A stretch of 14,417 bases of DNA from Fibrobacterota bacterium (GCA_043753995.1 JAYUVP010000011.1:1-14417), one strand, 5' to 3'; counted from the stretch's first letter, positions 6,127-12,428 are shown. The notes: generated by a model from the letters alone, not told the origin. A program made the numbers and translations.

Positions 6127-8607
6127 ATGCGCGTCTTTCTTTGGCTTTGCCAGATTGTTCTGGCAGTGGGACTTCTTGTAGGCTTCGGAGCGAAATGGGG
6201 CTCCCTGCCTCGCCTGGCCCCTTTCTTATCTCCCTTCGAGGGCTTTTGGCGCAATGCGGAAGCCGACCCGGTGCGCCCCAAGGCCACGCTATCCCTTGTC
6301 GGGCTGGATCATGCGGTGAATGTGGTTCGCGACAAGCGGCATGTTCCGCACCTTTTTGCGTCTTCGGAAAAAGACCTGTATGTGGCTCAGGGCTTTGTCA
6401 CGGCCAGCGATCGCCTTTGGGAAATGGACGTGGTCACGCGAGAGGCGGGTGGCCGCCTGGCCGAAGTGATGGGAACCGCCCTCCTTGAGCATGACAAGAT
6501 GCGCCGCCGCTATGGCTTATTAGAGGCCGCCAAGGCCATGGAGGGTGGCTTTCTTAAGCATGAAGGCACTCGTCGCGCCGTACAAGCCTATACCGATGGC
6601 GTCAATGCGTACTTAGCTCAGCTCAAACCACGTGACTGGCCACTGGAATTCAAGTTGCTCGATTATGCTCCTGAACCCTGGACCCCACTTAAGACGGCCT
6701 TGCTCATCGCCAGCATGCAATGGACGCTGAGCGCGAGCGAACACGATCAGCCCTTGACCGCGACCTTTGGAAAATATGGCGCGCTTTTCTTTCGCAAGTT
6801 CTTCCCGTCCCATGATTTGGAAGTGCCCACCATTATTCCCCCCGGCACCCCCTGGGGATTCGCTTCGACCCCACCCCAGCCGGATTCTGCGCGTAGCGAC
6901 TCCCTGGCGCCGCCCGTCCTGCCTGCGGAGCTGGACTCCACGCCATCCCGCGCCGATAGTGGTTTGCGTGAAAAGGCACGCTTGCCTGCGAATTATCATG
7001 GCAGCAATAATTTTATTCTCAGCGGGTCGCGCACGCGCTCGGGTAAACCCTTGTTGGCCAATGATCCGCATCTCGATTTGGGCTTGCCTTCGACTTGGTA
7101 TGAAATGCAATTGCGGTCACCGGGCCTCAATGTCTATGGCGTTTCCCTGCCGGGTGTGCCGGGGATTGTCACTGGCTTTAATGACAGTTTGGCCTGGGGC
7201 CTTACCAATGGTGCCGATGATGTCTTCGATTGGTATCGCGTAAAATTCCGCGACTCGACCTTGCACGAATACTTTCATAACGGGCGCTGGGTCGACACGC
7301 GCCAACGCATCGACACCTTTACCGTGCGCGGGGGCGTCCCGATTTTTGACACCGTAACCCTCACCCATCATGGCCCCATCGTCTGGCGTGAACCCGAGGC
7401 CTCCAAAGGACGCAATGCTCCTTTATTGCATGCCCTGCGCTGGCTTGCTCATGACACCAGCGATGAAGTCGGAGCGCTATTGCGCTTGCAAGGATGCGGC
7501 ACCGTGAATTGCTTTCAAGAGGCGATCACCGGTTTTGCCTGTCCTTCCCAGAACTTTGCCGTCGCCAGCATCACGGGTGACATTGCCTTATTTCACATGG
7601 GTCGCTTCCCTTGGAAATGGCCGGGACAAGGTCGACTCATCCTGGATGGATCCGATGCGCGTCACGATTGGCAAGGTTGGGTGCCTTGGGAGAGAATTCC
7701 CAAATCGATGAATCCCAGCCAGGGATTTCTTTTCTCTGCCAATCAAGAGCCGGTCGATTCAACCTATCCCTATCATTTGGGTAATAGCTATACCAACCCC
7801 GATCGCGCCGTGCAATTGGGCGAAAGACTCGCCACCCTCCATAATGCTGATTTCGACTCTGCTTTTTCGGTGCTGCAAGACGACAAAGGACAGCATGCCA
7901 TGCGCATTCTTCCCCTCATGCTGGGACTGCTGGATTCGCTATCCTTAAAATCACCCGAAGACACCCTGGTCGATCTTTTGCGGCACTGGGACTATCACTA
8001 TCGCCCGGAAGGCTTTGCGCCCACCGTTTTCGAGGCCTGGTGGCAATCGCTTTATCGAGCTATTTGGAGCGATGATTTCGGGGAAGATAGCGAGCATTAT
8101 AATTGGCCAAATCTCAAAGTCACCCGGCGACTCATGCAGGAAGAGTCCGCCTCGCCATGGTTTGACGATGTCCGTACACCTCAAACTGAAAGCTTACGTG
8201 ATTTAACCCATGCCACCCTTCGCAGCGCCATTGCCCAACTACGTAGCGATCTCGGACCGTCGGTAAGGCAATGGGCTTGGTCGCGTCGTCGTCCCGTGAC
8301 TATTAAACATTTATTGCGCCTACCCTCGCTCGGTTGGGACAGCCTCATTGTCGGCGGCTGCACTGATTGCATTCAAGCCCAAAGAAGTGGACATGGGCCG
8401 TCCTGGCGAATGGCGGTTAGCCTAACCGATCCCCCGCAAGCTTATGGCATATTCCCCGGCGGCGTTAGCGGAAATCCAGGTTCGCGTCATTACGATGATT
8501 TTGTGAATGATTGGGCCCTGGGTAAGCATTATGCCTTAACCCGCTACTTGAGATTGCCCGATACCGAAGACACCAGCGTCTTTCATCAGACCTTGGAGCC
8601 GCAATGA
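6127..8607 (+). CDS. Penicillin acylase family protein (peptidase S45, Ntn hydrolase), exported or membrane-anchored
   Basis: N-terminal hydrophobic anchor; alpha-subunit motifs VVRDKRHVPHLFA and AQGFVTASDRLWEMD; Pro-rich spacer; beta-subunit nucleophile G/SNNF (Ser293, nt 7003-7005); LLANDPHL; WGLTN; SANQ; PGGVSGNPGSRHYDD. Confidence 0.95.
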   Translation: MRVFLWLCQIVLAVGLLVGFGAKWGSLPRLAPFLSPFEGFWRNAEADPVRPKATLSLVGLDHAVNVVRDKRHVPHLFASSEKDLYVAQGFVTASDRLWEMDVVTREAGGRLAEVMGTALLEHDKMRRRYGLLEAAKAMEGGFLKHEGTRRAVQAYTDGVNAYLAQLKPRDWPLEFKLLDYAPEPWTPLKTALLIASMQWTLSASEHDQPLTATFGKYGALFFRKFFPSHDLEVPTIIPPGTPWGFASTPPQPDSARSDSLAPPVLPAELDSTPSRADSGLREKARLPANYHGSNNFILSGSRTRSGKPLLANDPHLDLGLPSTWYEMQLRSPGLNVYGVSLPGVPGIVTGFNDSLAWGLTNGADDVFDWYRVKFRDSTLHEYFHNGRWVDTRQRIDTFTVRGGVPIFDTVTLTHHGPIVWREPEASKGRNAPLLHALRWLAHDTSDEVGALLRLQGCGTVNCFQEAITGFACPSQNFAVASITGDIALFHMGRFPWKWPGQGRLILDGSDARHDWQGWVPWERIPKSMNPSQGFLFSANQEPVDSTYPYHLGNSYTNPDRAVQLGERLATLHNADFDSAFSVLQDDKGQHAMRILPLMLGLLDSLSLKSPEDTLVDLLRHWDYHYRPEGFAPTVFEAWWQSLYRAIWSDDFGEDSEHYNWPNLKVTRRLMQEESASPWFDDVRTPQTESLRDLTHATLRSAIAQLRSDLGPSVRQWAWSRRRPVTIKHLLRLPSLGWDSLIVGGCTDCIQAQRSGHGPSWRMAVSLTDPPQAYGIFPGGVSGNPGSRHYDDFVNDWALGKHYALTRYLRLPDTEDTSVFHQTLEPQ

Positions 8608-8960: not shown

Positions 8961-9887
8961 CTAAGCCGCGGCTTTGACTTTTTTCATTCGGCTTTCGCGA
9001 CTCAAAATCCAACCGCCCACCAAGGTCAAAGCTAAACCGGCAGCATTGAGCCAGGTGAGTGGCTCCTGCAAGGTGAAGTGTCCCAAGAAAAGTGTGAATA
9101 CCGGGCCGACCATGCCGAGTACCGCGGTGCGCTCAGGGCCTAAGGCTCGTAATGCCGTCCCTAATAGCAAGGTCGGCACAACCGTGCCCAAGATCGCCAC
9201 CACCACGGCATAACCATGAACAGGCACGGATGCAAGCCATTCGCCGGAGGGCACGAGCCAAACTGCCTGGGCGAGGACCATCACCGTGCACACCATCATC
9301 CCACCAATGAAAAGCCTTTCCGGGCCAAGACGCTGGATGTGCTTGCCGCTATAAATCAGGAAAAGCGCATAGGTCACGGCACTGCCGAATATGAGCAAAA
9401 CGCCTTTCCAAGCTTGCCCCATCGGTGAAACCCGAGCCTCTTCACCAAAGGCCATGACCAACCCGCCATAGCCTAGCAGCATGGCAAATATCAGAGGACG
9501 GCTCAGAGTACGCCGGAAAAACAGCCAACCGAAGATCACGACCAAGGAGGGATGGGTATAAAGGATGAGCCTTTCCATTCCCGCCGAGACATAAAGCAAT
9601 CCGGCAATATCCATGACTCCCGATAAATAATATCCGACCAATCCCAAAATCAGAATGATGAACCAATCACGAGCGGCCAATTCCGGTAAGCCCTGTTCGC
9701 GCGCTTGACGAAGGGCGCGAAACCACAGGAAAAGGAAAATCGGAAATGCATAGGCCATTCGCAAAGCCATAAAAAGCCAAATCGAGGCACCGTGCATAAA
9801 GGCGAGCTTCATCAGCACGCCCTTGCCCGAAAACAAAATGGCCGAGGCCATAGCTGCCGCTATACCCATTGACGAGGAGACTCGCAT
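8961..9887 (-). CDS. EamA/DMT-family transporter (about 10 TM, two EamA repeats); start uncertain (9902, 9887 or 9869)
   Basis: SAILFSGKGVLMKLAF, LRMAYAFP, GLLYVSAGMERLILYTHPSLVV and LGMVGPVFTLFLGHFTLQEPLT are EamA-repeat motifs. GAAAGG precedes ATG 9887. The ORF-track start at 9950 lies in the terminator U-tract. Confidence 0.92.
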   Translation of the reverse strand: MRVSSSMGIAAAMASAILFSGKGVLMKLAFMHGASIWLFMALRMAYAFPIFLFLWFRALRQAREQGLPELAARDWFIILILGLVGYYLSGVMDIAGLLYVSAGMERLILYTHPSLVVIFGWLFFRRTLSRPLIFAMLLGYGGLVMAFGEEARVSPMGQAWKGVLLIFGSAVTYALFLIYSGKHIQRLGPERLFIGGMMVCTVMVLAQAVWLVPSGEWLASVPVHGYAVVVAILGTVVPTLLLGTALRALGPERTAVLGMVGPVFTLFLGHFTLQEPLTWLNAAGLALTLVGGWILSRESRMKKVKAAA

Positions 9888-9948
9888 GATGCCTTTCCGC
9901 ATGCTAACGCTTGTGGCCGAGACTTCGGTCTCTTCTGACGCGGACCTC

Positions 9949-9989
9949 AAAACAAAGAGGCCCGCTTCAGGGAGAAGCGGGCCTCTTTG
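9949..9989 (-). terminator. Rho-independent terminator (attenuator 3:4 hairpin) upstream of the EamA gene
   Basis: Perfect 16-bp inverted repeat (9953-9968 with 9974-9989, 5-nt loop). On the minus strand it ends CUUUGUUUUG. Confidence 0.9.
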
Positions 9990-10014
9990 CCACGAACCGT
10001 TTAGGATGTCGTGA

Positions 10015-10095
10015 TCAAGACCCGCATGGAAAAGCCACGACTTTACGCGCCCAAATAATTAGGTAGGTAGGAGTTGTCGTGACGATGCGGATCAT
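10015..10095 (-). CDS. Putative attenuator leader peptide, 26 aa MIRIVTTTPTYLIIWARKVVAFPCGS (31 aa if started at ATG 10110)
   Basis: Hand-translated sORF below the track cutoff. 12 of 26 residues are Ile, Thr, Val or Leu, clustered as IRIVTTTPT, LII and VV. The stop is about 25 nt before the terminator stem. Confidence 0.75.
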   Translation of the reverse strand: MIRIVTTTPTYLIIWARKVVAFPCGS

Positions 10096-10186
10096 TTTTG
10101 AAATAGACATCTCGGGTTCGTCTTTGGCAACCCACCCGTTTTTACCCGTCTTTTCGGATTGGGAATGCGAATAATTCGATATGGCT

Positions 10187-10202: not shown

Positions 10203-11087
10203 ATGCCGCGAAAAACACAACCCGGGCTATCCTTTTCTTTAGCGGTTCTTCTGGGCTTGTCACCCATCTGCTTGATGCATTGCGAAATGCCCGGTGGCGA
10301 TCCTGCGTCTTCGGTACTTTCCATTCTCAATAAAAGGCCCGCCAGTTTTCACGAACGATTGGTGGCATTAGATGCTTTGATTCGCCGATACCAAGGCTTA
10401 GAACCCCGTTCGGAATTCGTGGAAAGCTTGACAGTACAAGAGGGCTTGCTCAAAAATCGTCTACTGAGTATTTCCGATCCCGAGGCGAAATTAACCGCCC
10501 TGAAATCTTTTGTCTTCGACTCCTTGAAGTTACAGCCTGTCTCCGGACCGACCAGCCTCGATCTTTCCCTGCCTAGTCGCGTTCTAGAAGATCGCAAAGG
10601 TTCCTGTGTTGGCTTGACCTTGCTTTTTTTAGCCTATGCCGAGGCCGTGAATTTGCCGCTACGTCCGGTGTTTTTGCCAAGCCATATCACACTTTCACTC
10701 GACATCCAGGGGAAAACTCGCTATCTGGAAACCTTGAAGCCGACTCTTGAAAGAGATTCTGCTTTTTATGCCCAAACCTTTCTCCTTGCAAAGCGGCCAT
10801 GGTATGCTGCCTTATCCTCGAAGCCGCCAGAGGCGGCCTTACTGGCCCTAATCTTCAATTTCGCCAATACTCAGCATGATCAGGGCCAAGAGGATTGGGC
10901 CCAAGACCTCTATCGGCTAATCAATCAGTCGTTGCCGCAATTCCCAGAAGCCGCTGGCAATTTAGGTCTCTTACTTCATCACAAGAAACTCCCGGACCAG
11001 GCCAAACCCTGGTTGGATACGGCTTTGGCCGGAGACACCTTGGGTGGCCAAAAAGCTCTTTCCATACTTCGTTCAAGTTCGCATTGA
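10203..11087 (+). CDS. SirB1/transglutaminase-like (Transglut_core2-type) protein with C-terminal TPR-like helices; possible exported protein or lipoprotein
   Basis: LPSRVLEDRKGSCVGLTLLFLAYAEAVNLPLRPVFLPSHITL...YLET matches the SirB1-like core. TPR-like PQFPEAAGNLGLLLHHKKLPDQAKPWLDTAL. Hydrophobic N-terminus ending LMHC. Confidence 0.8.
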   Translation: MPRKTQPGLSFSLAVLLGLSPICLMHCEMPGGDPASSVLSILNKRPASFHERLVALDALIRRYQGLEPRSEFVESLTVQEGLLKNRLLSISDPEAKLTALKSFVFDSLKLQPVSGPTSLDLSLPSRVLEDRKGSCVGLTLLFLAYAEAVNLPLRPVFLPSHITLSLDIQGKTRYLETLKPTLERDSAFYAQTFLLAKRPWYAALSSKPPEAALLALIFNFANTQHDQGQEDWAQDLYRLINQSLPQFPEAAGNLGLLLHHKKLPDQAKPWLDTALAGDTLGGQKALSILRSSSH

Positions 11088-11120: not shown

Positions 11121-12428
11121 TTGAAATCTTCACTTCGAATTCATTTATGCGGCAGCAATCGCGATCTCGCGAGCGAGCGCCATGCCCTATTGGCCTGGCT
11201 GGAAGATTGCAGGCTGCGGACGCCCCATTTCAGCTATTTCGGAGCGCGCACCCTTCCTAGCCTGGAAAGCGCCTTACAAGACATCGCCGCCAGTGATGTC
11301 ATTATTCTGGTGGTGGGCCATCTCTATGGCATAGTGTCTCCCGGCCAAAATCGCGCCCAGGAAGAAAGGGAATACGAAGAAGCGACTCGCCTCGGAAAAA
11401 CCATTCTGGTCTATTTACGCGATGAAGAATCAGGTCGAGTTCCCGGCTCAGTCGAACGGGACGCCGTTAAAATCCCCTTATTGCAAAATTTTCGGCGAAG
11501 ACTCTCGGAACAACATAAAGCCAAAACTTTTCGCGATCAGACGCAGCTGACCCAGATTTTGGAGAGCGATATCCTCAGCATTTTGAGCGAAAGAGGATTG
11601 CAGCGCAAACAAATCGACAAGCCTTTATTGCGCACTCGAGCTACCACACCCGAAACAGATAAAGGCAATCAAGGTGATGGATCTTTAGGCGGCTCTTCGA
11701 ATGACTCTGGAACGCGGACCTTGCCCCTTCTACAAAAGGCCCTATCCACGCCATTTTCTCCATCGGGTCCACCTCGAAACAAAAATTGGCGTGGCACCGC
11801 CCTCCTTGCCATCCTAATTGCCCCGCTTTTGGCTCTAGGTTTATGGAAGGGAAATTGGCTGCAGCACCTCTCCAGCCCAAAAACGAATTTGGCGCCGCTC
11901 AGCCCTATTGCCATTGATAGTACCGCCAAGGACACACTTTCAGAATTAGGGGACACCCTGGCATTATCTGATTCGATGTCAGTGAATGCTGCGCCACCCC
12001 CCGTTGAATCTAGGCCCGACCCATTGGCCACCCTATTAACCAAGGCTAAAGAGGGAGACACGACGGCATTATTGCAGGTGGGAACCATGTATGATTCCGG
12101 ACTGACCTTGCCTCAAGATGATTCTCTTGCCACCTCGCATTATCGCCGTGCGGCTTCTAATGGAATGGCCGAAGCCCAGTATCGCCTGGCCTTGAGGCAT
12201 TTAGCCGGGAAAGGTGCCAAGCGAAGTAAAGCCCAGGCTATGTTCTGGCTACAATCAGCCGCCACAAAAGGTCATGCCGTCGCGCAAAGCCATATGGGAC
12301 GCATTTATTTCAAGGGCCAAGGCTATCCGCGCGATGAAGCTTTAGGCCTCAAATGGCTTCTGAAGGCAGCAGATCAAAAAGACCCTGAAGCTGAGAGAAT
12401 ATTGGCTGAAATCAAGGGGCAGCCTTAA
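11121..12428 (+). CDS. DUF4062 (TIR-like) domain + single TM + Sel1-like repeat protein
   Basis: The N-terminus RIHLCGSNRDLASERHAL...IAASDVIILVVGHLYG...EEREYEEATRLGKTILVY fits DUF4062. TM GTALLAILIAPLLALGLW at about 11793-11846. Three Sel1 repeats (ALLQVGTMYDSG...AASNG; AQYRLALRHLAGKG...AATKG; AQSHMGRIYFKGQG...KAADQK). Confidence 0.85.
   Translation: MKSSLRIHLCGSNRDLASERHALLAWLEDCRLRTPHFSYFGARTLPSLESALQDIAASDVIILVVGHLYGIVSPGQNRAQEEREYEEATRLGKTILVYLRDEESGRVPGSVERDAVKIPLLQNFRRRLSEQHKAKTFRDQTQLTQILESDILSILSERGLQRKQIDKPLLRTRATTPETDKGNQGDGSLGGSSNDSGTRTLPLLQKALSTPFSPSGPPRNKNWRGTALLAILIAPLLALGLWKGNWLQHLSSPKTNLAPLSPIAIDSTAKDTLSELGDTLALSDSMSVNAAPPPVESRPDPLATLLTKAKEGDTTALLQVGTMYDSGLTLPQDDSLATSHYRRAASNGMAEAQYRLALRHLAGKGAKRSKAQAMFWLQSAATKGHAVAQSHMGRIYFKGQGYPRDEALGLKWLLKAADQKDPEAERILAEIKGQP

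Follow-up and report, generated by a model that had tools for sequence, protein, structure and literature searches.

The enterobacterial attenuators (trpL, thrL, ilvL/ivbL, leuL, hisL and pheL) combine a leader ORF with alternative 1:2, 2:3 and 3:4 pairings and an intrinsic terminator. Classical attenuators carry two to seven regulatory codons, and a single one would be unusual. TnaC has a single critical Trp, and its motif also includes an Asp at W+4 and a terminal Pro at W+12. TnaC stalls the ribosome at its stop codon and blocks Rho, and the genes of the tna operon include a transporter. Resistance and efflux genes are often controlled by leader peptides. YcbK of Bacillus subtilis is an EamA-type efflux protein. 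The gene ycbK is described as transporter-like, with its substrate not known, and as controlled by TRAP and on when tryptophan is scarce (PMC13170310), a precedent for the expression of such a gene under Trp shortage. Leaderless polycysteine short ORFs of mycobacteria are presented as Cys-rich attenuators that sense cysteine (10.1101/834739).

In the present study we describe a leader upstream of an EamA transporter gene in a Fibrobacterota bacterium (GCA_043753995.1). The stretch of DNA analysed, here called the window, is the 14,417 nt of JAYUVP010000011.1:1-14417. From the sequence, we consider it probable that the EamA gene is under a transcription attenuator of the ribosome-mediated (leader-peptide) type, acting on an mRNA predicted to be leaderless. 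As an attenuator, this mechanism is well supported by anatomy and comparison. Like the enterobacterial attenuators, the leader appears to comprise a short ORF (sORF), three exclusive pairings and an intrinsic terminator, with predicted read-through when a ribosome stalls early. Unlike them, it has a predicted leaderless start and no Shine-Dalgarno sequence, the anti-antiterminator arm begins at the start codon, a single long hairpin takes in the whole sORF, the target is a DMT/EamA transporter instead of a biosynthetic operon, and one invariant Trp codon takes the place of a conserved run of regulatory codons. With TnaC it shares a short peptide, a single Trp and a position upstream of a transporter gene; it differs in its intrinsic terminator and in that a stall at the stop codon would favour termination. 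Whereas a Trp-binding protein blocks the ribosome-binding site of ycbK, as far as the source describes it (PMC13170310), a leader peptide would act here. The mycobacterial sORFs, as portrayed in the source, open a leaderless mRNA with a short ORF that regulates downstream genes (10.1101/834739), an arrangement also predicted for the EamA leader, but they belong to another phylum, and the EamA leader lacks a Cys run and has a clear intrinsic terminator with an antiterminator.

Nothing like this leader turned up in full-text literature searches on attenuation before EamA genes, on leader peptides in Fibrobacter or on leader peptides with a single Trp codon. The leader offers a regulatory element that can be tested in a little-known phylum of mostly uncultured lineages. 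Such sORFs go unreported by annotation pipelines and have no Rfam model.

Results

The EamA gene and its neighbourhood

The regulated gene, on the minus strand at 8961..9887, encodes an EamA/DMT-family transporter of 308 amino acids (PF00892, E 4.6e-25; alternative ATG at 9902). For its subfamily, NCBIfam offered no more than the generic 2A78 model, at a score below cut-off. Comparison with PDB sequences found no relative, and the Atlas gave only generic DMT clusters. The EamA gene is probably monocistronic, because the next gene is convergent. Since the upstream neighbour is divergent, the hairpin described below lies in the 5' leader of this probably monocistronic gene.

The convergent side holds an ORF of 115 amino acids without a family, located after a penicillin-amidase family gene (6127-8607, plus strand; PF01804, E 3.7e-193). 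The divergent neighbour at 10203-11087 (plus strand) encodes a transglutaminase-like protein (PF13369/PF01841; its SirB1-like match is weak), and beyond it, at 11121-12428 (plus strand), lies the gene of a DUF4062 and Sel1-repeat protein. No link to the leader was seen for either divergent neighbour.

Leader ORF and promoter in the window

The leader sORF occupies 10095..10015 of the minus strand, with an ATG at 10095, 26 codons and a TGA at 10017..10015; it is assigned from strand reading and from a stop placement that is conserved in the family. Its peptide, MIRIVTTTPTYLIIWARKVVAFPCGS, contains four Ile, four Thr, three Val and one Leu, the Leu on a CTA codon (10062..10060). Re-reading of the strand therefore bore out the sORF and residue composition given in an earlier, sequence-only reading of this DNA. 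Codons 2-10 (I R I V T T T P T; 10066..10092, minus strand) are rich in Ile, Val and Thr in this genome only and overlap segment 1, the 5' arm of the long hairpin. The Trp codon UGG (10051..10053, minus strand) is located in the 3' arm of the apical hairpin and is the sole codon invariant in the family.

The best promoter match, chosen by the spacing rule of the relatives, consists of a -35-like TTGCCA (10125..10130, minus strand) and a -10-like TCTATT (10102..10107, minus strand) that ends 6 nt 5' of the ATG. This arrangement (TTGCCA-17 nt-TCTATT-6 nt-ATG) obeys the rule. The -10 element is a weak match (4/6) without the usual A at position 2, and a consensus scan of the window called no minus-strand promoter at the leader. 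From this promoter geometry, the mRNA is predicted to be leaderless or near-leaderless, with a start at or next to the AUG. An in-frame ATG at 10110 was rejected as the start, because no promoter-like hexamers lie at a fitting distance from it, while the ATG at 10095 matches the promoter spacing of the family.

RNA pairings and terminator

Segment 1 (10076..10093, minus strand) starts at the G of the ATG and forms the 5' arm of the anti-antiterminator. Its partner, segment 2 (10017..10041, minus strand), overlaps the last codons of the sORF and the first base of the stop codon. The outer part of this 1:2 hairpin pairs GAUCCGCAU (10093..10085) with AUGCGGGUC (10027..10019) over 9 bp, and the inner part pairs GUCACGAC (10083..10076) with GUCGUGGC (10041..10034) over 8 bp. 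In the 2:3 antiterminator, GCGGGUCUU of segment 2 (10025..10017) pairs over 9 bp with GAGGCCCGC (9985..9977), which is part of the terminator 5' arm. The intrinsic terminator (9949..9990, minus strand) has a U-rich tail and a 17-bp stem, the 3:4 pairing, formed by 9990..9974 and 9968..9952 around the loop UCCCU; the run UUUGUUUU is partly within the stem. RNAfold gave -34.1 kcal/mol for the terminator hairpin alone, and the duplex of segment 2 with the terminator arm has -17.4 kcal/mol. A small hairpin, UCACGA...UCGUGG (9990..10014, minus strand), lies between the stop codon and the terminator and is enclosed by the antiterminator.

Folding of the 176 nt from 10115 to 9940 with RNAfold gave -76.9 kcal/mol, against -46.4 +/- 4.3 kcal/mol for 200 dinucleotide shuffles (z -7.1; 0/200 as good). 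The minimum-energy structure contains the 1:2 hairpin of 9+8 bp and a terminator of 17-18 bp. Pairing between the first 30 nt and the last 30 nt of the sORF had a z of -4.6, again with none of 200 shuffles as good. When the transcript was cut before the terminator 3' arm, GCGGGUCUU paired with GAGGCCCGC, the proposed 2:3 antiterminator. All three pairings claimed in the sequence-only reading, including the capture of terminator sequence by the antiterminator, were thus recovered on the minus-strand leader; the terminator itself stands, with a stem of 17 bp where 16 bp had been given and with an interrupted U-tract. A simple terminator scan did not list the leader hairpin, because just four T follow the stem within the 8 nt that the scan inspects.

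The likeness to thrL and ilvL that had been proposed holds as an analogy of layout and not as membership of a family, since the Rfam model RF00506 (Thr_leader) scored 32.6 bits on the minus strand, below its gathering score of 55. The same model scored 28.9 bits on the plus strand, so the match is driven by the GC-rich terminator hairpin and not by homology. No Rfam family matches the window or 13 related loci.

The leader in related genomes

A nucleotide search of 60 related genomes with the leader gave only chance-level or terminator-like matches. The EamA sequence of the window had no match among genome contigs and three short, distant matches among metagenome contigs, none of them close. 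A six-frame protein search detected EamA homologues of 33-42% identity in 35 of the 60 relatives, which are uncultured Fibrobacterota. We took 29 relatives' loci and left out two (L033 and L051) at contig ends with too little upstream sequence, so that 27 loci with at least 200 nt upstream were assessable. Leader statistics cover 26 relatives and the window, 27 leaders in total. One of the 26 (L045) is from a genome flagged unpublished (G021), and no count depends on it.

Promoter, sORF and terminator precede the EamA homologue in 26/27 assessable loci of the relatives; the element is conserved. The remaining locus, L049 of the f4 family, has no such leader, and neither does a Cytophagales homologue (L066). 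In these 26 loci the terminators are GC-rich, are located 23-260 nt (mostly 25-82 nt) before the gene, and have a short ORF ahead of them. The family layout is TTGACA, 16-18 nt, a TATAAT-like element, an ATG 6-9 nt past the -10 and a sORF of 26-60 codons; from the distance between -10 and ATG, the mRNAs are predicted to be leaderless. When the ATG was picked with nothing but the promoter score as guide (TTGACA, 16-18 nt, TATAAT-like, ATG 4-9 nt later), the same sORF came out in 25/27 leaders, the window included. The first in-frame stop falls 17-34 nt ahead of the terminator in all 27 leaders, as against 1/27 and 9/27 for the other two frames.

The GAGCGGG-like last 10-20 nt of each sORF can pair with the terminator 5' arm at -10.8 to -24.9 kcal/mol. 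Compared with 200 shuffles per locus, these antiterminator duplexes have a mean z of -2.3 and are among the best 5% in 18/27. In the family alignment, 84.4% of the antiterminator cells pair in register, against 28-56% when the strands are slid. The terminator pairs in 98.7% of cells and has compensatory changes at six pairs, which are the compensatory base changes that the sequence-only reading had suggested looking for. Terminator arm and sORF end have also changed together in L042, where the leader's own pair has -14.4 kcal/mol and mismatched combinations have -5.7 to -10.4 kcal/mol.

Before the terminator is synthesized, most leaders fold into one long hairpin between the nucleotides after the AUG and the end of the sORF, and the Trp codon is in the apical stem of this hairpin in most of them. 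The 1:2 pairing is weaker and more variable in the family than in the window (mean z -1.3 vs -4.6), and the position of segment 1 varies. Leaders differ in length by whole codons. Within genus g3, the nucleotides of the apical stem-loop are conserved, third codon positions included; between genera, little sequence is conserved beyond the UGG, segment 2 and the terminator. The loci come from kindred genomes, and 15 of the 30 leaders considered in the next section belong to g3, so counts and p-values overstate independence.

Leaders of g3 (e.g. L050 and L035) also have a conserved small hairpin between sORF stop and terminator, CUGAUUCGA ... UCCGGAUCA, with the stop codon in its 5' arm; the window carries a different hairpin there (10014..9990). 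The g3 hairpin might be a pause or spacing element.

Composition of the leader peptides

A Trp is found 10-17 residues before the stop in 30/30 leaders from nine genera and two families. These 30 are the 27 leaders above and three (L074, L091 and L097) detected with a covariance model built on the EamA leaders; two more matches of the model were unresolved by the promoter rule, one of which (L100) is the same locus as L060. Most leaders have a single Trp codon, and extra Trp is not enriched (6 among roughly 1000 residues). Compared with the proteome, five residues are enriched about 2-2.6x between positions -5 and +7 around the Trp, namely Ala (21%), Val (13%), Ile (11%), Lys (11%) and His (6%); D, E, P, G, S, N, F and Y are depleted there. 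Family-wide, Ile is enriched 2.3x and Val 2.1x around the Trp, and II, VIV or VVLVRII adjoins it in several leaders; an Ile/Val input is accordingly possible. Thr is not enriched (0.90x pooled, 0.65x near Trp).

In the window, 11 of the 25 residues after the initiator Met are Ile, Thr or Val (p 0.001), among them eight of the nine in codons 2-10. One relative is also significantly rich in these residues (p 0.02) and the other 25/27 leaders are not, so the conserved Ile/Thr/Val codons expected upstream of orthologous EamA genes by the sequence-only reading were not found. The N-terminal I/V/T run of the window is conserved in none of the relatives compared, all of which lie at some distance (EamA identity 33-42%), and part of its I-R-I-V-T-T stretch may be dictated by complementarity to segment 2.

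Three g3 leaders of 32 codons differ by 1-4 synonymous and 11-14 non-synonymous changes per pair, spread evenly over codon positions. Frame, ends and a small core are kept and the whole peptide is not, as expected of a leader peptide and not of a functional small protein.

Ribosome position and proposed mechanism

Leaders were folded as cut transcripts with a masked ribosome. In about 15 of the 27, the terminator arm was captured by segment 2 until the A site was 1-5 codons past the Trp, and in the same leaders the antiterminator was lost once the last 8-12 codons were covered. In the cut transcript of the window, the antiterminator formed with the A site at codon 4, codon 7, the Trp or V19, and was lost at the stop. 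The Trp codon is thus close to the 3' limit of the region where a ribosome, if stalled, still leaves segment 2 free. In several leaders this model sequestered the terminator arm even without a ribosome, a case that equilibrium folding cannot resolve. In equilibrium folds of the full leaders, the terminator won over the antiterminator at almost all ribosome positions in each of the 27, so any regulation must be kinetic (co-transcriptional), as in the classical attenuators.

We propose that transcription starts at or next to the AUG of the 26-codon leader ORF, giving a leaderless mRNA. With no ribosome on the leader, segment 1 would zip up with segment 2, the terminator would form and transcription would stop some 60 nt short of the transporter gene. 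Termination would also follow when a ribosome has reached the last codons, since segment 2 is then covered. If a ribosome were instead held at any point between codon 2 and roughly the fourth codon after the Trp, it would keep segment 1 or the hairpin body apart and leave segment 2 free; this segment could then pair with the terminator 5' arm and let RNA polymerase read through. The switch would therefore report slow translation of the leader. We infer the translation of the sORF, its leaderless start, the kinetics and the identity of the sensed amino acid from these features.

The cue would most likely be a shortage of charged tRNA. Charged tRNA-Trp is the candidate for what is sensed across the family, because the single invariant UGG lies just upstream of where the ribosome begins to cover segment 2. 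The Ile and Val codons around the Trp, and the Ile/Val/Thr run in this genome, are possible further inputs. What the sequence-only reading had said of structure stands (a leader sORF, three exclusive pairings and read-through on early hold-up); its amino-acid specificity does not extend to the family.

Alternative explanations

Points against the proposed attenuator include the nature of its target, a transporter and not a biosynthetic gene, the unusually low number of one regulatory codon, the biased flanks of the Trp, of which a pure codon sensor has no need, the weak -10 hexamer of the window, and trpE and trpBA of the same genome, at which no such leader was found. An attenuator specific for Ile, Thr and Val, as in thrL and ilvL, with stalling on the I-R-I-V-T-T-T-P-T codons of segment 1 as its signal, was the original proposal, and we now regard it as unlikely. 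It accounts well for the window, where the run is dense and where a modelled ribosome on codons 2-10 frees segment 2, and it is in keeping with the dense Ile and Leu runs in same-layout attenuators of the same genome (see below) and with the Ile- and Val-rich flanks of the Trp. The effect on segment 2 claimed for stalling at these codons is therefore seen in the model, but the specificity is not general: 25/27 leaders show no such enrichment, Thr is unenriched, no relative keeps the N-terminal run, which complementarity to segment 2 would partly force, and the target is neither an ilv nor a thr gene. It is similarly improbable, in our estimate, that the peptide itself is the sensor, its Trp and A/I/V/K-rich flanks stalling in the exit tunnel to cause antitermination. 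A small molecule would then act as the trigger, be it the substrate that the transporter carries or an antibiotic or other translation inhibitor that targets the ribosome, with the stall a few codons past the Trp; we give this trigger the same low weight. An arrest peptide would explain why an invariant Trp, a single codon in most leaders, has a compositional bias around it, and EamA is a member of the drug/metabolite transporter superfamily, in keeping with the resistance and efflux genes that leader peptides often control. The distance from Trp to stop varies between 10 and 17 residues, however, and no other position is conserved across genera, which argues against arrest at the stop codon with a fixed, TnaC-like geometry. 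Outside its core the peptide changes freely, a ribosome halted at the stop codon would mask segment 2 and so promote termination, and the TnaC motif is missing: the residue at +4 of the Trp is mostly A, V or I in place of Asp, and the last residue varies where TnaC has Pro. If true, arrest would make the leader a Fibrobacterota counterpart of the TnaC and erm leaders, coupled to an intrinsic terminator.

A ligand-binding, riboswitch-like RNA or a protein-bound leader, with an incidental ORF, appears very unlikely. The long conserved hairpin, the apical nucleotides kept in g3 even at third codon positions, and a terminator/antiterminator pair that could serve as an expression platform would all suit it. 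It leaves unexplained an ATG at a fixed distance from the -10 in 25/27 leaders, a frame open over 26-60 codons with its stop always on segment 2, and length changes in whole codons, and it fits poorly with the scant conservation between genera beyond the UGG, segment 2 and the terminator, and with the lack of an Rfam match. That there is no regulator at all, only an ordinary terminator or a small RNA beside a chance sORF, is hardly credible. Simple scans flagged neither promoter nor terminator, which counts in its favour, but no minus-strand gene ends upstream of the hairpin, the upstream neighbour being divergent, and the layout recurs before the same gene family in nine genera with an antiterminator that co-varies with the terminator. 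We retain a ribosome-mediated attenuator as the preferred reading, with charged tRNA as its most likely cue. The invariant single Trp suggests two alternatives, that one codon can serve as a starvation sensor or that the peptide itself is the sensor; whichever signal is sensed would be a direct clue to the substrate of this anonymous EamA transporter family.

Leaders of the same layout elsewhere

The covariance model built on the EamA leaders also detected two leaders before biosynthetic genes in the genome of the window. One (L125; C294:16829-16915, plus strand) has a 20-codon sORF with an LIIRII run and precedes a citramalate synthase gene (TIGR00977, 677.8 bits vs a cut-off of 450); from this context it is a probable Ile attenuator. 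The other (L126; C43:17499-17595, minus strand) has an 18-codon sORF ending L-G-L-L-L-S-L-L-G, with six Leu in the last nine codons, before LeuA2, a 2-isopropylmalate synthase (NF042434, 588 bits vs 500), and is probably a Leu attenuator. Both resemble the EamA leaders in the type of promoter-to-ATG spacing, the GAGCGGG-like segment 2 and the GCCCGCUCC-type terminator. They differ in having dense cognate-codon runs (LIIRII; LGLLLSLL) 1-11 codons before the stop and no Trp, and in preceding biosynthetic genes in place of a transporter. The lineage thus appears to use amino-acid attenuators with dense runs of cognate codons, where the EamA leaders have a single Trp instead.

Same-layout sORFs with IIRI-type runs are also found in relatives (L111, L112, L115, L116 and L120). 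A citramalate synthase frame directly follows in L111, L112, L115 and L120, as it does in L108, for which no sORF was resolved. No leader or terminator was found at trpE and trpBA of the window's own genome; trpB is present in 60/61 genomes.

The occurrence of Ile-, Leu- and Trp/Met/Cys-type leaders alongside those of EamA genes suggests wide use of leader-peptide attenuation on predicted leaderless mRNAs. The last of these types is a second leader family in relatives (L102-L107, L109, L110 and L113), to which a leader of the window's genome (L124; C353:17982-18070, plus strand) may also belong. At least L102-L107 and L109 lie upstream of a protein of about 265 amino acids without a Pfam or NCBIfam family. 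The sORFs of this second family have 43-49 codons and encode a Trp, then a Cys- and Met-rich core and the end SG(L/S)L.
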